Shown piece after piece: positions 37,888 through 46,429 of a stretch of 64,000 nucleotides of DNA (positions within the stretch are counted from its first letter, which is position 1; each line of letters starts with the position of its first letter). The position numbers were made by a program, and so were the translations under genes. This DNA comes from Escherichia coli (GTDB lineage: Bacteria > Pseudomonadota > Gammaproteobacteria > Enterobacterales > Enterobacteriaceae): assembly GCF_030013595.1 (NCBI RefSeq), contig NZ_CP122768.1; one strand, given 5' to 3'. The notes under the pieces were generated by a model. It did not search any database. It was not told the DNA's origin and saw only the letters and a program-made list of their open reading frames with translations.

Positions 37888-38451
37888 TCAGTTGTGTCGT
37901 GGTCGGCCCCGGTTACTTTTTTCGGGAAGCCTGCTACGGCCCAGAATAATACCGTGTTCTTTCTGATCCTGTTTAGCCAGGTAGCTGAGGGCGTAACGTA
38001 AGTCGTCTACCGCGGACTTATCACTATAGTGAATCACGTGATCGATACGCACCGGGTATTTATCTTTAGCCCGGCACAGATGAAAATAACCATCCCCTTC
38101 CGTGATCCGCCTCCAGATATCTCCCAGTTGCCTGGATATCTGATAAGAGTTCTTGTGACGTTGTCCATCCAGGTAGCCGATAAAATGAATATGAAGCCCT
38201 TTGTCTGGTGTATATTCCATAACCCAGTAATATCCTGCCAACATCGTTTGGTTTTCGCTAAGTAAACGGTATATTTCCATACACATACTGTGCTTACAGG
38301 AATGCCCGAAACTGGGCGTGTATTTCCTGTAGGCAAAATCAATTCTGAAAGGTAACAGTTTAGAAAAACGTTGAAACAGACCTTCCATGTGTTCATTCAC
38401 ATCTTTCAGAATCGCGAAATTCATTTCGTAATTGGGATTGGCATTATACAT
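37888..38451 (-). CDS. YagK/YfjJ-family (inovirus Gp2-like) protein
   Basis: 187 aa; recalled family resemblance and conserved position next to DUF3987/alpA in CP4-like islands. Confidence 0.65.
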   Translation of the reverse strand: MYNANPNYEMNFAILKDVNEHMEGLFQRFSKLLPFRIDFAYRKYTPSFGHSCKHSMCMEIYRLLSENQTMLAGYYWVMEYTPDKGLHIHFIGYLDGQRHKNSYQISRQLGDIWRRITEGDGYFHLCRAKDKYPVRIDHVIHYSDKSAVDDLRYALSYLAKQDQKEHGIILGRSRLPEKSNRGRPRHN

Positions 38452-38581
38452 TTTATAGTCCTTACTTTATAAAATTCACAGGAAGAGGGAATTACGTAAA
38501 TACTGAGAGTACATAAACGCCGTACCACGGCATTAATAAACGAGGTAACCAGCAGTACAGACAACCTGATAAAACTGTTTG

Positions 38582-38609
38582 GTATTACCTCATTACAATG
38601 AGGTAATAC
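38582..38609. promoter_or_regulatory. Perfect 13 bp palindrome (gtattacctcatt ac aatgaggtaatac) upstream of the YagK-like gene
   Basis: Exact inverted repeat with 2 bp spacer, about 130 bp upstream of the start codon inside a roughly 970 bp AT-rich non-coding region. Confidence 0.35.
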
Positions 38610-39423
38610 TTCAGAATACAGTGAGGCTCTCTTAAACAGAGGACTAGTAAGAATTACAATGGCAAAAACACACCTCATAGAATTAAGTTTAAGGAAGTAC
38701 CATTCAATCACTTACAGGAAGTAATCTGATCTTCACAAAAGTCAGCTATCGAATAGCCACAGGCAACATCGCTATTAATATTGCCGTACCATTAAGTAAA
38801 AACAGGGACTCTGCAGAGAGAGCCTACAGATATTTAACCTCACAATAAGAAGATTATTTTATACAGAAAATATTATATTTACCCATACTTATAAACTGTA
38901 ATGGAGCTATAACATACGAACTAAAGACAATATACTCTAATAGTGTTCTGGTACGTAACTAGTGTTAAATACAAACCAGACATACATTCAGTGGATTAAC
39001 TATCTCAATATTACGCTATGAGCGTAGTAACATAATTTACACATAACTAAACCCCATACACCTCCACACTGTAGTATATGGGATAGACGCATTACGCACA
39101 TACAGAATACTCAGCATAACATAAAGAGGAGTGACATTACGATAAAAAGAGACAACATAACAGATAACATAACTCCCATTAATAATACTAATTAACCTAA
39201 ATTATTTATTGAATACGAAAACAATGAAGGCCCCACCTCACCTCAGACTAAAGCCGACAATATCCTGAGCAACAGGATATCCAATAGTAAATAGTGGTTA
39301 CACCAGTTATATTTACTGACTGACCTGTACCAGAGTTTTCTAATACAACGCTGACATGGTAAAGGCATTAGTCTCCTCCGCAAGTAGCAGAGGAGACTAT
39401 ATGTTAGTCAACGATTAAGTTGT

Positions 39424-40874
39424 TCAGAGGTCAAAGTTAGGTGCGACACACAACGTTTTTCCCTCAATAACCGGTACAACTCTGTTTTGTTCATACAGTA
39501 AATCCAGTAACCAGTTGATTTTATCCTTTTTCCGGAAACGGTTCGGACCACGCTGTAAAATGTCATTTTTTTTCATACAGAGGATCCCCTTCTCAATGCA
39601 ATAGCTTTTTATCCAGTTGAAAAGTTCAAGCTCCTCTGGAATGAGTCGCACAGGTACGGTCAGGGCAGGGTTGTCAAAAGTTAACGGATTAGACAACCGC
39701 ACATACTCATTACCGTACCATATTGCTAATTCTCTCGCCATTTCTGCAATGTAAGGGGAAATCTCCCCCTCCTCACCGCTCGAATGGTAAATAAGTCCTG
39801 CCAGTCTTGCCATATACTCTGCATTTTTAGCAGCATATTCCCGGCAATGTCTTAAAGGCCCCAATCCCCCCAGCTTCGATTCCACATCATTGTAATAATC
39901 CGTCCAGATTCTGGCAGCCTGAGGAGAAAAGTGAAGGCAACGTCGTTCACCACTCATCGCCAGACTTTCATCAATAAGCTCATTGATCCTCTGTTCAAAC
40001 AAATCCTGATACTGTGATGAATAATTATCTCCGGTTATTATCCTTGTCCCCTGCGTTGATGTTGGTTGACACATCAAAAACCTTGCATGATGTCCTGACG
40101 TTTTCACAAGTTCTTTTTTTCGCGTACAAAAACCTTTGTGGTAAACATCAGGCTGAATCATCGCCGACATCGTCAGTCTTGGCTCCTTCAAATTAATTCC
40201 GGGAGATGATTTCCTGTCGATGAAAAGAGAACCTCCATCCCACAAAGTGTTAATAATTCCCAGTTTACTCATGGCCCGGCTGTCAAAAATTCCCCCCCTT
40301 CACTGGATACAAGAGCAAAAGAACGATTGCTATCGGAGTAATATTTTAACATTCCCTCTATCGTTGTCTCATTAAAAATTGTTCGACGTATCTGCGGCGG
40401 AACAGGAGACTTATTCAGATGCGTTTCAAGCTCTGATTCTGTTGCCTTGTAATCTTTACCGGCACGAATCTCTTTATGAAATTTTGATTCCAGCGCTTTT
40501 TGTTTTTGCTCCCATATTTCCTTTTCTGTGCTGTAATTCTCAACCAGTTTCGCGTATTCTTCCGCCAGGGCTTCATCCCTGAGATAAAATGCTTTCATAA
40601 ACACTTTATCCACGGTCGTTTTCCTTTCACCAGAATCAGCCAGAATCAGAGAGTAAAGATTAACAGGCCCACGTAAATTTCCAGGTCTGCACACGTCAAT
40701 CTGATTCTGACAGGCAATTGAGATCGCTGTTAATGCGGATGTCGCCACCATAGCCAAAGGTGCCTGTGTATTTTTTTGAGTTTCAATTATTGCATTTCTC
40801 ACCAGCGGTGGTAGTGCATATATCGGATAAGGATTTTCTGGTGCAAGTAAGCACATAAAAGCCTCTCTTTTCAT
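39424..40874 (-). pseudogene. YfjI-like DUF3987 protein gene split by a frameshift in a C7/G7 homopolymer
   Basis: Two ORFs (40874-40269, 201 aa; 40272-39424, 282 aa) in adjacent frames; both frames are open across the C7 run at 40292-40298 and one extra C would fuse them into about 483 aa. Confidence 0.6.
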
Positions 40875-41104
40875 TAATGGGTTAGTAAAGTAGCAGCAAC
40901 TCCCGCTATAATAGCGAAATAGCTGCTGTTCAGACCTAATGTTCTGAGAAATACAGAATATCTGTAGATCTGATGTTTAATAAACCGATAAGGTTAATTC
41001 AGTTCATACTGTGTTATTTACCACGAAATATCATTCATGTTTCTCATTCTTAACACCTCCTAAAATTATTTCACTAACACCTTCCCCCCGGTCTTTTTCC
41101 TTTC

Positions 41105-41332
41105 TCAGGAATCAGCCAGAACCATAGTGTAAATATTAACGGGCCCACGTAAATTTCCGGGGTTGCACACGTCAATCTGATTCTGACAGGCAATTGATAT
41201 CGCTGTTAATAATGATGTTGTAGTCATAGCCAGAGATGCTTTTTCATTGTGTTGAGTTTCAATTATTGCATTTCCAGTCATTGATGGTTGCGCATATACT
41301 GGATACGGAGTATCCGGTTTGATGTAAGACAT
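41105..41332 (-). pseudogene. Duplicated 5' fragment of the DUF3987 gene
   Basis: 75 aa ORF with an LAM..TS.LTAISIACQNQIDVC.PGNLRGPVN.Y core shared with the N-terminus of the ORF at 40874; flanking DNA 41100-41410 repeats 40620-40930 at roughly 80 percent identity. Confidence 0.55.
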
Positions 41333-41437
41333 AAATATTTCCTTTTTTCGTAATAACTTTCGGTTATAGCAGCTATTTCCGCTACAATAGCAACAATAGC
41401 TGCTATACAGACTGGATATACTGAAAATACAGACAGT

Positions 41438-41686
41438 TCATCTGGTCTGTATCCAGCAGAGAAGGTCACTTAACAACCATCCGCAAGATTTCTTTCCGAT
41501 AGACTTACGTGGTGGAAATGTTCCCTCCCGTTCAAGTTTCCACGCTTGTGTACGAGAAATTGACGTGATCTCATATCGTTCCTTTTCACGTACCAGTCTG
41601 TCGCATTCAATCCCATAAGCTTTCAAAATGACCAGACGCTGTTCATCTGTTAATGGAAGCCACATACTACCCTCCTGATATATCAA
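41438..41686 (-). CDS. alpA: AlpA-family phage/island transcriptional regulator (HTH)
   Basis: C-terminal YEITSISRTQAWKLEREGTFPPRKSIGKKSCGWLLSDLLCWI matches the AlpA HTH pattern; true start may be an internal Met. Confidence 0.7.
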   Translation of the reverse strand: MIYQEGSMWLPLTDEQRLVILKAYGIECDRLVREKERYEITSISRTQAWKLEREGTFPPRKSIGKKSCGWLLSDLLCWIQTR

Positions 41687-42355
41687 TACTTTTTATTTCC
41701 GGCATGAGCATGAAATGACTAAGTTTCCCGGATAAACAATGAGTGAAAGTCACTATCATTCATCCAGTCAACACCTTACAAATAAAATGTAATACTATGA
41801 TTTTTATAGGTCAAAATACTGAATTGAAATGTTAAAATGGCTTTTAATAGAAAAAATAAAGACATATAGAACCAAATAAAAACAAGCCGCGACCAATAAA
41901 AACAAAAATTAATATTAAAAATCCATTATGACGATTTTTGTTGACTAAAATTAGGTTGGGATATATAAATAAATCCATGTAAAATTCAAACAAAGCATGG
42001 AGGAGTCGCAGGAAGGTGAAATATTTCCATCTAATTTGTGATAATCATCACAAAAATAAGCTACAACAAGCGGAGGAAAAGACAATCTGTTGCTGAACAG
42101 ACAGAAGCAGGCTACGAATGATCGGAAAATGAAGCAAATACGCTTATACAGAAGACGCAGAGGTAACTGACGGAGACAATCACAATCAGGAGAAAATTAT
42201 CGTAAATAATGTATAAAATCTCAGGATATAAACAAATGTACACAAGCTATCCACGTAATCAGCGGCTGGCTCAGGATTAACGTTTCATTTCAGTGGACAA
42301 CATCGATTCTGTCTGACAGCGGACCAATATGTAGCAAGCAGAAACTTCTGACATC

Positions 42356-43954
42356 ATGGTAACTCGGACAATGCAACAAAAGTATCAGTATGATCGTGTT
42401 TTATCCGGCGAACTCCACCCATTCCCTGGCATATACGAGGCGGTTTCCGAACAAATCCTTTTGCTCATTTTTAAAGCACGTCAACTATATCAGGATCCAG
42501 AATATCGCCCCTGGTTTGAAGAACAGCACAGAGTACTCTCTGCATTACGTGCCAATACAGAGCTCCTGAGAATCTTTAGAGAACAAAGAAGCGCTGAAGA
42601 ACCAAAGCTTACTATTGAAGAGTCTACCTCCCCCCAACCCACTCCTTCTGCTCTTACAGATGCGCTTAATGTGATGTGCCATTTATACAATGGTTTTGAT
42701 GAAGGAAATATCAGTCTGAAAACTTGGGGGGCGATGCAAGAGGTACAGACAACATCAACCTTTATCAGCCCAGGACCGAGAACCTGGAAAACACCTGAAC
42801 TGGCAAAGTTTGTAGGAGATGATTTATTTAATATTCTGACTGAATGTAAGGCCTGGAGTTCACCAATTCCAGCAGAAACCCGACAGGGGTATTGCCATCA
42901 GGATCTGTCTGTTGCACACTCCTGCACCTCAGAGTTACTGGCACACCTGAATCAATATCATGAAATTGATGAATCAGCAATACTTGCCAGAGTTATTGGT
43001 ATAACAGTTAACGGATTCTACAAGAAAAATAATACAGACCTTCCAGAATGGCTATCCCCCTTTAAAGAGGAACATAAAATATTCAGAGATTGTCCGGAGC
43101 AAAATACCGGGGATGTAATCAGACGGAAAGAACAACTGTTGAAAACAGGACGTACAGAATTCGTGAATAATTTGTGTCGGGTCGCCAACTGGTATGAAAT
43201 TGAGTCAATATACGATGAATACGTCCGTCTTTATGCCAATGAAATCATTGACTGGTTCAACAAAACCATGAAGTATTTTAAACCAACAGATTTTATCCGA
43301 TATACATGGAAATTCGCAACAGTTACTCCGGATAAAGATACAGAAACCGGGCATACAACTGCATGGGAAAAGGATTATTGCCAGATAACCATACAACGTG
43401 ATGAACTTCTGAGGTTGATTCACACCAATACCCTTCAGGATGCAGTAATTTATCTTTGTCATTGTCTACAGAAGGAATACAAGAAATCATCCCAAAATGA
43501 GATAGAGTTCCCAGGAATAAAACCTCCGACATCAGAGAGTAAAATTAATATAACAAATAATATTAAATTTCATTCTCTCCTGGAGCTCAGTAAAGATAAT
43601 GAGAAGCGTCTGGAAACATTTCAAAAATGGTATGAAAAAAATAAAGTTTTGTTAGAAAGTCATAAACAAAAACGAACAGAGAAGATTGACGTTGCCGTAC
43701 GACTTGTAGGGCTGAAAGCCTATGATCTGCATGAAGGGATTCCGGATAGTCCAAAACGAAAAGTTAAAGATGGCATAAATGAAGACATCAAAGCCGATAC
43801 CAGTTTACGCCTGTCAAAGACAAATATAAGTGATACGTCGCTAAACCGTTATCGCCGCACTGTTAAGGAGATTATCAATAACGAAATTGACGCATTCCTG
43901 TTGGAACAGAAGAAAAAAATAAAAGATTTCCCTACAGTGAAGATAGAGATGTGA
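42356..43954 (+). CDS. Hypothetical protein, 532 aa, no recognisable domain
   Basis: Long uninterrupted ORF in an AT-rich segment; no Walker, nuclease or HTH motif found by eye; start codon uncertain, no clear SD. Confidence 0.55.
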   Translation: MVTRTMQQKYQYDRVLSGELHPFPGIYEAVSEQILLLIFKARQLYQDPEYRPWFEEQHRVLSALRANTELLRIFREQRSAEEPKLTIEESTSPQPTPSALTDALNVMCHLYNGFDEGNISLKTWGAMQEVQTTSTFISPGPRTWKTPELAKFVGDDLFNILTECKAWSSPIPAETRQGYCHQDLSVAHSCTSELLAHLNQYHEIDESAILARVIGITVNGFYKKNNTDLPEWLSPFKEEHKIFRDCPEQNTGDVIRRKEQLLKTGRTEFVNNLCRVANWYEIESIYDEYVRLYANEIIDWFNKTMKYFKPTDFIRYTWKFATVTPDKDTETGHTTAWEKDYCQITIQRDELLRLIHTNTLQDAVIYLCHCLQKEYKKSSQNEIEFPGIKPPTSESKINITNNIKFHSLLELSKDNEKRLETFQKWYEKNKVLLESHKQKRTEKIDVAVRLVGLKAYDLHEGIPDSPKRKVKDGINEDIKADTSLRLSKTNISDTSLNRYRRTVKEIINNEIDAFLLEQKKKIKDFPTVKIEM

Positions 43955-44078
43955 TTCGACCTTTATGGGGAAAATGCCTGACCGGGCAGTAGATCACAGA
44001 TGGGATAACATCCCGGTTATCCCCTGTTTGTTCTGCTTCAGGTTGCCAGAGCTCCAGGAACACGAGGCAATCGGCAAA

Positions 44079-44675
44079 TTATGCGGCTTTTCCATTAACA
44101 GATTCGGCCACAAGAACAACACCGTGTTTGTTTCGATCAGGATGTTCACTCCAGATTTCTGATTCAGGAATACTTTCCCCATCATAGCAGATCCGATCAC
44201 CATCAAACGGATAATACCGTGCGGAATCTGTATCTAAGATAAACACCTTAAGATTCGTTGAACGACGCGCTATATGCTGCCAGAGGGCTTTACCTCCTTC
44301 ATATTGCTCGTTATCACTTAATAGTATAACGCCTGCTTTTGTGGCTATTGTTTCATAAACAAACGTAGCAAGGCTAACATCACGTACAGCACCATCGACA
44401 ACAATCCCTTCAATCTGAGCAACGTCCTGTTCTTCCCAGAATTTCCGGACAAACACCCCTTCAAGCTGTGAACGACGCTGAAGCTCCAGAGTGGCAACAA
44501 CCTTATGGCGAATATCACCATCAATAACAGAAGGTGCAGCTTCGATTACCGCAGCGAACGGAGTCTTTGGATCCCAGATGATCTGGTAAAGCACACCCTG
44601 AATAGTTACTCCATCCAGTATCGAAAAACGACGAGCTACAGTAGCAGGGGAGTAAGACATTGGAATGACAGCCAT
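44079..44675 (-). CDS. Hypothetical protein, 198 aa
   Basis: ORF adjacent to thrW inside the island; no recognised motif. Confidence 0.5.
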   Translation of the reverse strand: MAVIPMSYSPATVARRFSILDGVTIQGVLYQIIWDPKTPFAAVIEAAPSVIDGDIRHKVVATLELQRRSQLEGVFVRKFWEEQDVAQIEGIVVDGAVRDVSLATFVYETIATKAGVILLSDNEQYEGGKALWQHIARRSTNLKVFILDTDSARYYPFDGDRICYDGESIPESEIWSEHPDRNKHGVVLVAESVNGKAA

Positions 44676-44975
44676 TTTATGGCCTAAAATTTGAAAACAT
44701 CAGTATCAATACTGACCTCATCAGTCTGAGCATATATTGATAAAGTTTTTATGTTTACACTCAATAAATACCTTACCAAACAACTAATAGCGATGTCTAC
44801 ATTGCCATTCGACATGCTTACAATTTTTGTCAACAAGAAAGTGAATTTATATCAACGGTAAGAAGTAAACACGAGGACACCAAAACCAAATGTACACACT
44901 TTTGTGCTTTGTGTCCCCTGTGTGTACCCAAATGACAAACTGCAAGAAAATCTAGGCACACACTTATCTAACTTA

Positions 44976-45031
44976 TTGATTTAAATGGTGCCGATAATAG
45001 GAGTCGAACCTACGACCTTCGCATTACGAAT
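44976..45031 (-). repeat. Island-junction direct repeat overlapping the 3' part of thrW
   Basis: 56 bp match to 16635-16690 with 2 mismatches. Confidence 0.85.
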
Positions 45032-45061
45032 GCGCTGCTCTACCAACTGAGCTATATCGGC
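44986..45061 (-). tRNA. thrW: tRNA-Thr (anticodon CGT)
   Basis: Reverse complement reads GCCGATATAGCTCAGTTGGTAGAGCAGCGCATTCGTAATGCGAAGGTCGTAGGTTCGACTCCTATTATCGGCACCA; 76 nt with CCA end, located next to proA. Confidence 0.95.
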
Positions 45062-45175
45062 CCTGAAAGGACATGTTCACGAACGTGAATCACGGTGGAC
45101 AAGGTTAAAACTAACCGGGCGATGCGTCAATGGCCTTGTGAATCAAATGGCTACTTTTGCATCACCCGGTTTTAT

Positions 45176-46429
45176 TTACGCACGAATGGTGTAATCACCA
45201 ATGCCGATCCACTTGTAAGTGGTCAGTGCTTCCAGCCCCATTGGGCCACGCGCGTGGAGTTTTTGTGTGCTTACCGCCACTTCCGCACCCAGACCAAACT
45301 GGCCGCCATCGGTAAAACGCGTAGAGGCGTTAACGTAAACAGCGGACGAATCCACTTCGTTAACAAAACGCTGGGCGTTGCGCATATCGCGGGTCAGGAT
45401 CGCATCGGAGTGTTGTGTGCCGTGTTCACGAATATGGGCGATGGCATCGTCAAGATCGCTGACGATTTTAACGTTCAAATCTAATGACAGAAACTCATCG
45501 TCATACTCTTCGGCTTTAACAGCCACCACCTTCGCGGGGCCTGCCTGCAACTGCGCCAGCGCAGCTACATCTGCGTGTAATGCCACGCTGCTTTCCGCCA
45601 TTTGCTTGCTTAATGCGGGCAGGAAGCTATCGGCGATGTTTTTATTTACCAGCAACGTTTCTACCGTATTACATGTGCTCGGACGCTGAGTTTTTGCGTT
45701 GACGATTACTTTCAGGGCTTCAGCGATCTCTGCACTTTCATCAACGTAAATATGGCATACGCCTATACCGCCTGTGATCACTGGGATTGTCGACTGTTCG
45801 CGGCACAGCTTATGCAGGCCAGCGCCTCCACGCGGGATCAGCATGTCGATGTATTTATCCATACGCAGCATTTCACTGACCAGCGCACGGTCAGGATTAT
45901 CAATCGCCTGCACGGCACCCGCCGGTAAGCCGCAGGATTTCAGGGCGTCCTGAATCACCGCTACCGTTGCAGCGTTAGTGCGACAGGTTTCTTTGCCACC
46001 ACGCAGGATCACCGCGTTACCGGTTTTCAGGCACAGCGAAGCGACATCAACCGTCACGTTCGGGCGCGCTTCATAAATCACGCCAATAACCCCCAGCGGT
46101 ACGCGACGACGCTCAAGACGCAGGCCGCTGTCCAGTACGCCGCCATCGATTACCTGCCCCACCGGATCGGCGAGATTACACACCTGACGCACATCGTCGG
46201 CGATGCCTTTCAGCCGTGCGGGCGTCAGTGCCAGACGGTCAAGCATCGCTTCGCTAAGGCCATTGGCACGCGCGTCAGCAACATCCTGGGCGTTAGCGTT
46301 GAGGATGATTTCGCTTTGTGCTTCCAGTTCATCGGCGATTTTTTCCAGCACGCGATTTTTTTCGCGGCTGGAGAGTTGCGCTAATTTATACGAGGCTTGC
46401 TTCGCGGCAATGCCCATTTGTTCCAGCAT
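45176..46429 (-). CDS. proA: Gamma-glutamyl phosphate reductase
   Basis: 417 aa; recalled match to ProA; conserved proBA operon. Confidence 0.95.

Follow-up and report, generated by a model that had tools for sequence, protein, structure and literature searches.

In phage-inducible chromosomal islands (PICIs), the origins are iteron arrays located 3' of rep, not single hairpins, while rolling-circle double-strand origins served by Rep initiators of the HUH type are familiar from plasmids of the pT181/pMV158 type, from phiX174 (gpA) and from the Ff phages (gpII), and plasmid RSF1010 carries the single-strand initiation (ssi) hairpins ssiA and ssiB, which are recognised by the RepB' primase and work with the RepA helicase. 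In PICIs such as EcCICFT073 the gene order is int, alpA, pri/rep and ori, and over-expression of AlpA triggers both excision and replication (PMC6092414). A DUF3987 protein has been shown to be a 5'-3' helicase that works with an AEP-type (archaeo-eukaryotic primase) primase-polymerase (PMC11724360). Here we analysed a stretch of 64,000 nucleotides of Escherichia coli (contig NZ_CP122768.1 of assembly GCF_030013595.1, hereafter the window) in which a tandem repeat lies between an alpA-family gene and the DUF3987 helicase gene yfjI, and in which each copy of the repeat carries an inverted repeat, or dyad. Taken as a whole, the explanation to which we give moderate credence is an old duplication that left a dead gene stub, together with an origin-type hairpin shared by the entire alpA-yfjI-yfjJ module.

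Results

A tandem repeat between alpA and yfjI

The original prediction had described a tandem partial duplication of the 5' region of the DUF3987 gene, about 310 bp long and roughly 80% identical between copies. The duplication is real: two copies in direct orientation share an ungapped match of 294 nt at 77% identity (40585-40878 vs 41061-41354) and a further one of 33 nt at 76% (40918-40950 vs 41395-41427), and comparison of one copy with the other by blastn, in a 99.9%-identical genome, returned E = 5e-72. Its dimensions, however, had to be revised, as the homologous unit is about 392 nt long once gaps are allowed (40585-40976 vs 41061-41452; period, 476 bp) and its identity is about 76%. 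The similarity is neither confined to the coding part nor below 70%, as 53 of 75 positions (71%) agree in the upstream non-coding part and 76% in the coding part, the latter value rising to 78% once both ATGs are placed in register (49 differences over 225 nt). Homology runs about 45 nt past the TGA of the truncated copy, to 41061, a segment of 65 nt past this stop is 78% identical, and outside both ends of the repeat identity drops to 40-45%, which is the random level. The upstream boundary falls inside the last five codons of alpA, and a recognisable remnant of these is kept in copy 1 (CATCAGATC vs ATTCAGACC). The features of the region, as annotated by us or by the Prokaryotic Genome Annotation Pipeline (PGAP), are the following.

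41061..41452, minus strand: repeat copy 2 ("A-type", upstream), with the last ~15 nt of alpA, a dyad, a Shine-Dalgarno site and about the first 90 codons' worth of yfjI
40585..40976, minus strand: repeat copy 1 ("B-type", downstream), with a remnant of the last alpA codons, a dyad, a Shine-Dalgarno site and the 5' end of full-length yfjI
41105..41332, minus strand: truncated yfjI 5' pseudogene fragment, a 75-codon open reading frame (ORF) in this strain, flagged by PGAP as "incomplete; missing C-terminus"
41365..41407, no strand: dyad copy 2, TATAGCA-GCTATT-GTT-GCTA-TTG-TAGC-GGA-AATAGC-TGCTATA, with 13-nt perfect outer arms and a mismatched linker
40890..40929, no strand: dyad copy 1, ACAGCA-GCTA-T-TTC-GCTA-TTA-TAGC-GGG-AGTTGC-TGCTAC, with a degenerate right outer arm
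40977..41060, minus strand: junction filler of ~84 nt, with a strong Shine-Dalgarno site AGGAGG (41056-41061) and a 9-codon ORF, MRNMNDISW (41018-41047)
41438..41665, minus strand: alpA-like gene encoding 75 aa from the start codon called by PGAP (with an ORF that reaches 41686), Pfam Phage_AlpA PF05930 over the full profile at E = 1.7e-13
39424..40857, minus strand: full-length yfjI (DUF3987 helicase family), Pfam DUF3987 (PF13148) at E = 1.5e-83 for the full-length allele
37888..38451, minus strand: yfjJ/yagK-like gene (Gp2 / REP_ORF2-like), third gene of the module, named "YagK/YfjJ domain-containing protein" by PGAP
41423..41452, minus strand: stem-loop ATACAGAC-N10-GTCTGTAT followed by TTTT, as read from the sequence; overlaps the alpA stop codon at the upstream end of copy 2

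The 75-aa N-terminal fragment that had been predicted to result from the duplication is indeed there (41105-41332, minus strand), and its DUF3987 match (E = 2e-8) covers positions 2-45 of the profile only; homology of the fragment stops at 41061, near the codons of the Walker A motif. Inverted repeats had also been announced upstream of each copy, and were found at 41365-41407 and 40890-40929. That the region contains a tandem duplication, and that the fragment is a pseudogene for the reasons given further below, we consider almost certain.

Age and origin of the doubling

When recognised by its filler, the doubled form is present in 1,337 of 5,426 complete E. coli genomes, and a related single-copy form in about 60; because it is so widespread, the doubled arrangement is old and inherited. 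It is found at thrW (in the window and in PK5074) and at a second site by dgcT/pgaA, with a flanking integrase (CFT073), and next to at least two alpA alleles that are unrelated at the DNA level. Within a locus, the variants ATT, GTT and GCT in the context CAGxxTGA are lineage-specific and common to both copies, and a chimeric fragment protein (P0010) exists, both of which point to gene conversion between the copies.

As the source of the repeat we favour duplication in place followed by decay. In an ancestor of the large group of CP4-57-like islands of E. coli, about 392 bp at the alpA/yfjI junction would have been doubled in tandem, the joint being occupied by about 84 nt of filler; the copy on the alpA side, a truncated gene, would then have decayed neutrally, and the downstream copy would be the one that heads the real yfjI. 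Some of our data weigh against such an origin and would better suit a junction formed when two diverged islands or alleles recombined, in which the fragment would be the remnant of the original partner of alpA, and the filler, the second dyad and yfjI would have been imported. The locus is in fact a mosaic, as the window and CFT073 become homologous precisely where dyad 2 has its left edge (41404), and their alpA genes show no relationship in DNA; intact copies are 98% identical between these lineages vs 87% for the fragments; synonymous divergence (dS) between the two copies is 0.35-0.44, above that among intact copies; L003, a relative with one copy, matches copy 1 at 96% identity, the dyad being part of the match; and simple duplication leaves the 84-nt filler unexplained. 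On the other hand, an intact full-length gene of the A type should have been the partner of alpA, and none was found in the 5,426 complete E. coli genomes, in plasmids searched by tblastn (which returned only fragments with >85% identity), or among GTDB species representatives scanned with N-terminal patterns, where no relative was seen. A protein word-index search gave 25 of 25 matches of 94 aa or less, which is weak evidence given that the same search missed even a 68%-identical full-length YfjI. Moreover, the ratio of nonsynonymous to synonymous substitution rates (dN/dS) between the ancestral fragment and the ancestral intact copy is 0.57, a value that fits one neutral and one constrained branch, whereas about 0.3 would be expected for two functional alleles based on B-B comparisons, and the ancestral fragment reconstructed by parsimony already had a stop at codon 15. 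We therefore regard a junction of two alleles as an unlikely source of the repeat, albeit one to be taken seriously.

The dyad is shared by the AlpA / YfjI / YfjJ module

The two palindromes of the window are somewhat degenerate copies of an element with the consensus CT-GCTATT-N3-GCTA-(3-5 nt loop)-TAGC-N3'-AATAGC-AG, which accompanies the genes of AlpA, YfjI and YfjJ in bacteria that range from Enterobacterales to Burkholderiales, as well as in metagenomes. In about 20 loci, from at least 15 Enterobacterales genera and including K-12 CP4-57 (where YfjI is 42% identical to that of the window), it lies 40-55 nt upstream of yfjI, and in these loci 94.5% of cells are paired, vs at most 66% in slid controls. 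It follows yfjI in a Rugamonas genome, a Pectobacterium genome and a metagenome-assembled genome, and is placed between yfjJ and alpA in a viral contig. All collected loci were scanned with a regular expression that fixed only GCTATT, GCTA and their complements and left all other positions free, and the pattern scans yielded 7 further sites in the viral collection and at least 120 in the metagenome collection; of 80 metagenome loci that were read, most have AlpA, YfjI or YfjJ homologues nearby. Metagenome loci with at least 3 kb on both sides of the dyad numbered 18, too few to tell which gene best predicts it. The 46 unique gene-associated instances represent 17 gene/dyad arrangements, in which the dyad precedes alpA by 170-290 nt, occupies the alpA-yfjI, yfjJ-alpA or divergent alpA/yfjI spacer, or follows yfjI. 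With so variable an intergenic position, the dyad is not tied to the yfjI promoter but belongs to the module.

Selection acts on base pairing. The N3 linkers, left free in the search pattern, are perfectly complementary in 28 of these 46 instances, with 11 linker types represented (binomial p = 6e-39 against a chance of 1/64), and the flanking pairs +1 and +2 are complementary in 76-85% of cases and pairs +3 to +9 in about 45%, where chance would give 25%. Matches to the pattern that lack module genes, by comparison, have imperfectly complementary linkers in 19 of 25. Folded as DNA hairpins, canonical dyads reach -19 to -20 kcal/mol (z = -6 to -8), dyad 2 of the window -13.9 kcal/mol (z = -5.0) and dyad 1, whose outer arms are AGCAGC...GCTGCT and inner arms CGCTAT-A-ATAGCG, -8.5 kcal/mol (z = -2.2). 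Mismatches that would be compatible with wobble pairing favour neither strand (16 sense and 12 antisense), which argues for DNA rather than for one RNA strand but does not by itself decide between the two. Within 60 nt of the dyad, the flanks showed no conserved position beyond the CT/AG of the consensus and no AT-rich tract.

Both copies of the E. coli doubled loci appear to be still constrained, as they are more conserved than the neutral sequence around them. Among three island lineages, conservation amounts to 92-95% in dyad 2 and to 80-87% in the fragment beside it (Fisher p = 0.002 if gapped columns are counted and 0.03 for substitutions only), and dyad 1 is 95-100% conserved, whereas the neutral stub and the untranslated regions between the dyads range between 77 and 87%, compared to 92-100% for the dyads. 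The better-formed hairpin is the one that adjoins alpA, before the dead stub, and the more degenerate one precedes yfjI. Overall, we think it very likely that the module includes the dyad as a conserved element, constrained in its pairing. A literature search on the module genes returned no paper on this locus or on the dyad, and the hairpin appears to be undescribed so far.

A few individual loci deserve mention. In E. coli 700481 (L049), dyad copy 2 contains three instead of two copies of the 9-nt unit GCTATTGTC, an expansion of the left arm of the slippage type. Two metagenome contigs (L062 and L083) carry the dyad, alpA and a yfjJ-like gene with no detectable DUF3987 gene between them, so that the helicase may not be an obligatory partner of the dyad. 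In a Kosakonia locus (L020, ~2900-2940), the same alpA-yfjI spacer has a different perfect 12-nt inverted repeat, GTATCAGTTGTG-N13-CACAACTGATAC.

What the dyad might do

That the dyad could be an origin-type hairpin is suggested by the combination of a pairing-constrained, module-wide dyad with a DUF3987 helicase and with the HUH-like motifs of YfjJ. Alignment of the YfjJ family shows conserved H-x-H and S-Y-L-x-K motifs, which would be typical of HUH initiators, and a TOTE AEP-primase gene adjoins the module. According to this hypothesis, the dyad would be a base-paired DNA hairpin or cruciform recognised by the replication proteins of the module, namely YfjJ, as an HUH-nuclease-like relative of Rep/G2P, and YfjI, as the DUF3987 helicase, and it would act as an origin-type site, either as a hairpin for nicking or loading or as a site of single-strand initiation; the second copy would have been carried along as a by-product of the duplication. 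We put forward an origin-type function tentatively, as one whose chances fall somewhat short of even, and the broader proposal, that the dyad is the unrecognised replication origin or initiator-recognition hairpin of widespread integrative elements made of AlpA, a DUF3987 helicase and an HUH-like YfjJ, is more doubtful.

There are, in fact, several points that weigh against an origin. No conserved sequence resembling a nick site was seen in the loop, which is 3-5 nt long and variable, or within 60 nt of the flanks, nor is the dyad flanked by an AT-rich unwinding region. The Pfam matches of YfjJ are below the gathering cut-off, and its nuclease role is a predicted one. In E. coli the dyads have mismatched linkers and loops of 3 nt and, degenerate as they are, fold at -13.9 and -8.5 vs the ~-19 to -20 kcal/mol of canonical ones. 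Two origins of the same sense, only 476 bp apart, should be unstable in an element that actively replicates by rolling circle, but more than 1,300 genomes stably keep the doubled form. The commonest position of the dyad in metagenomes, 170-290 nt upstream of alpA, would suit an upstream regulatory site as well. Finally, the alpA-yfjI interval of K-12 is reported to contain a strong Rho-dependent terminator, with a 45-fold de-repression (PMC9160355), which makes a transcriptional role of the dyad plausible.

Such a role could be that of an RNA hairpin in the alpA-yfjI(-yfjJ) transcript, which would control processing, stability, pausing or termination and thereby gate read-through into the replication genes; the duplication would then have lined up two such gates one after the other, along with a leader of about 450 nt that is for the most part untranslated. 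The sense RNA does fold well, at -23.7 and -19.3 kcal/mol (z = -4.5 and -3.4), base pairing is selected for, alpA and yfjI abut in an operon-like manner in distant relatives, and K-12 yfjI lies on a 929-nt transcript that is the one up 45-fold when Rho is compromised (PMC9160355). The mismatches compatible with G.U pairs, however, lack the strand bias that one RNA strand would impose (see above), the position of the dyad relative to the genes is highly variable and includes divergent-promoter regions and sites upstream of alpA, and the stem sequence itself (GCTATT, GCTA) is kept across proteins that are only 30% identical, which would be unusual for a purely structural RNA hairpin. Neither is there a U-tract after the hairpin: a scan for intrinsic terminators found none at the dyads, and the flank that follows the dyad has the consensus AG and no T-run. 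A search of Rfam 15 over 39000-45200 brought only the tRNA-Thr to gathering score, the dyad giving a microRNA match at chance level (E = 0.39). We hold an RNA gate to be improbable, and an explanation of the duplication as two gates in series equally so. Additional Rho loading by a C-rich, rut-like leader was also considered and dropped, as the sense strand is G-rich instead and composition gives it no support.

The original prediction had instead called the palindromes promoter motifs, duplicated along with the promoter, and had suggested that they might be operators controlled by AlpA. In its full form, each palindrome would be an AlpA-controlled operator overlapping the yfjI promoter, and the duplication would have created two tandem AlpA-regulated promoters. 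Position speaks for this possibility, as the dyads follow alpA closely and precede the yfjI start codons by 30-55 nt, and many metagenomic dyads are 170-290 nt upstream of alpA or in the divergent alpA/yfjI promoter region; furthermore, the AlpA of PICIs activates its own operon, including the replication genes (PMC6092414), and the AlpA types found here are homologous and, by our own reading, similar in the pattern of their recognition helix (S-R/K-S/T-T-I-Y/W). The TATAAT that had been noted in copy 1 is present, but it reads on the plus strand, away from yfjI, and exists in some lineages only, most having GCTATTGTAGC, of the GTAGC type, at that position. Scans with the sigma-70 consensus gave no hit over either dyad in the window or over that of K-12 CP4-57, and in the third locus scanned, the related L006, a single weak and non-conserved one. 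The same dyad stands unchanged beside AlpA sequence types I, II and III, without co-variation, and what is conserved upstream of alpA in related loci is another palindrome, CTTAATAAG, the GCTATT dyad being absent there. The dyad is also found downstream of yfjI, and covarying linkers and variable stem extensions would not be expected of an operator contacted by a protein. With a variable TATAAT on the wrong strand, no consistent sigma-70 promoter, and a dyad whose position and accompanying AlpA type both vary, the claim could not be upheld, and we consider an AlpA operator quite unlikely.

With regard to other regulators and sites, loci with type-I AlpA (L016, at ~2450-2560, as well as L008, L009, L010, L012, L018 and L023) have CTTAATAAG/CTTATTAAG palindromes 60-120 nt upstream of alpA, together with CATTAAGC(CCCT) direct repeats, present in four tandem copies in L016. 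These palindromes and repeats are candidate AlpA or repressor sites, and neither is found upstream of the alpA of the window. The AlpA antiterminator of P. aeruginosa was dropped as a guide, for it is a much larger protein of eight helices, with DNA contacts at residues 128-142 and GGGACG as its element. An older list of targets, obtained by systematic evolution of ligands by exponential enrichment (SELEX), names yfjI as a YbaO/DecR target. The published motif of this host factor is reportedly unrelated to GCTATT, and it was set aside.

The truncated copy and the frameshift in yfjI

Judged by its sequence, the upstream copy is a dead gene stub that evolves neutrally, as a pseudogene. Between orthologous fragments dN/dS is 1.4-1.7, compared to 0.24-0.61 for the same codons of intact yfjI; in fragments of the CFT073/O157 type and of the PK5074 type, codon 15 is a stop and there are two deletions (10 and 12 nt) as well as the insertion of one nucleotide; and across genomes the annotated ORF of the fragment varies from 38 to 79 codons. 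Because the ancestral fragment already had the stop at codon 15, the open 75-codon frame seen in this window is probably a chance reversion. It is very hard to believe that the fragment is a functional small protein, a paralogue of the N-terminal domain of YfjI under selection, since, in spite of a 75-codon ORF with a Shine-Dalgarno site, which this strain and its close relatives keep open, and of a doubled form far commoner in E. coli than the single-copy form, the stop and the frameshifting indels affect two of three lineages, dN/dS is at least 1 and ORF length is inconstant.

The yfjI gene that follows is itself broken in the window, by a 1-nt deletion after 40291 relative to the intact 477-aa allele of a 99.9%-identical genome (H1). 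Its two halves, 40269-40874 and 39424-40272, are in different frames, and alignment shows the missing base. The site (40291/40292) adjoins a C7/G7 run, and the frameshift is either that of a true pseudogene or a homopolymer sequencing error.

Junction filler and surrounding island

The filler always accompanies the fragment in E. coli (1,337 genomes). No similarity was found when it was compared with the 3' end of alpA and with the other sequences of this analysis, and the idea that it might be a remnant of the alpA 3' end was abandoned for this reason. Over three island lineages its Shine-Dalgarno site and mini-ORF are 91-93% identical vs 80-87% for the neighbouring stub (Fisher p = 0.012), the changes in the mini-ORF being one synonymous substitution and one TAA/TGA exchange at the stop, and the Shine-Dalgarno spacer is 8 nt long. 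The mini-ORF could encode a leader peptide or be a captured gene start. An 11-codon mini-ORF located after alpA in K-12 was rejected as its homologue, as it is not kept in L007, L042 and L022 and the resemblance is due to chance.

The island that holds the repeat is a degraded, CP4-57-like one inserted at thrW, the tRNA-Thr(CGT) gene at 44986-45061, which adjoins proA. On the minus strand, the order is a gene for a hypothetical protein of 198 aa, a divergent one for a hypothetical protein of 532 aa, the alpA-family gene (41438..41665, named as a helix-turn-helix or AlpA family regulator in the annotation of identical genomes), the DUF3987 stub, yfjI and the YagK/YfjJ (Gp2-like) gene, beyond which lie a decayed TOTE AEP-primase gene and insertion sequence (IS) debris. 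No integrase gene was found between thrW and the 198-aa ORF in the window (44079-44986), where the islands of L003, CFT073 and O157 have one. The 532-aa and 198-aa ORFs (42356-43954 and the region 44079-44986) have no Pfam match and yet are kept among related islands. The product of the yfjJ-like gene matches REP_ORF2-G2P at E = 0.0015 (19.2 bits vs a gathering cut-off of 27.8) and YagK_YfjJ_C at E = 0.005, both sub-threshold, and a search of solved structures with YfjI gave nothing significant. Between yfjI and the yfjJ-like gene (38452-39423) there are about 970 nt of AT-rich (32-37% G+C), non-coding DNA, vs about 150 nt in K-12, in which there is a perfect inverted repeat of 13 nt (38582-38609) and, after yfjI, a repeat resembling a terminator (39369-39399). 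As for the stem-loop at 41423-41452, L003 has the arms ATTCAGAC/GTCTGAAT, a compensated change, and it may be a weak terminator or attenuator after alpA.

Discussion

The duplication per se is an ordinary, old evolutionary scar, the stub of which PGAP already marks as partial. Its value lies in having pointed to a strongly conserved dyad, constrained in its pairing, which is the companion of the alpA-yfjI-yfjJ module throughout Proteobacteria. A large share of E. coli genomes harbour this module, in CP4-57 or in islands related to it (at thrW and elsewhere), and the genes that form it are functionally uncharacterised; with a defined cis-site and two candidate trans-factors, the HUH-like YfjJ and the DUF3987 helicase, the function of the module becomes directly testable. 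Our results also call for caution, as position alone is poor ground for calling dyads of this kind promoters or operators. If the dyad is indeed of the origin type, then a set of y-genes of "cryptic prophages" would represent a hairpin-primed replication module, whose family would include CP4-57, CP4-6-like islands and environmental relatives, and the doubling seen in E. coli would be a fossil of origin-associated recombination.

Comparison with known systems

In spite of several commonalities with the systems described above, the module also shows clear differences. Like PICIs, it belongs to an integrative element in which alpA heads an operon with replication genes, but it has a DUF3987 helicase and an HUH-like YfjJ in place of Pri-Rep, no packaging genes were seen here, and the window lacks an integrase between thrW and the module. 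With rolling-circle origins of the HUH type it shares a conserved, extrudable inverted repeat, of conserved stem sequence, that is accompanied by the gene of a predicted HUH-type initiator; no conserved nick sequence, however, was seen in the loop or the flanks of the dyad, its loop has only 3-5 nt, and membership of YfjJ among HUH proteins is proposed from motifs and sub-threshold Pfam matches. The likeness to the ssi sites of RSF1010, which is one by analogy, resides in sequence-specific hairpins usable on both strands and served by a dedicated helicase and a non-DnaG primase, an AEP primase gene being found beside the module here, although K-12 CP4-57 and many metagenomic loci have no adjacent primase gene. 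AgaPP / AgaPH (PriCT-DUF3987), the replication pair of elements associated with a prokaryotic Argonaute (pAgo), in a tRNA-integrated mobile element, differs in the N-terminal PriCT domain of AgaPH, which is absent from YfjI, and the passages on DUF3987 in its description mention no dyad element; as in the window, a DUF3987 protein, there a 5'-3' helicase, is encoded beside an AEP primase-polymerase (PMC11724360). Compared to the window, K-12 CP4-57 has a single copy with no stub and no filler, a YfjI that is 42% identical and another AlpA sequence type, and yet the three genes of its module are those of the window and follow one another in like order, with the same dyad (GCTATTTCCGCCATTAATAGCGGAATAGC) between alpA and yfjI.

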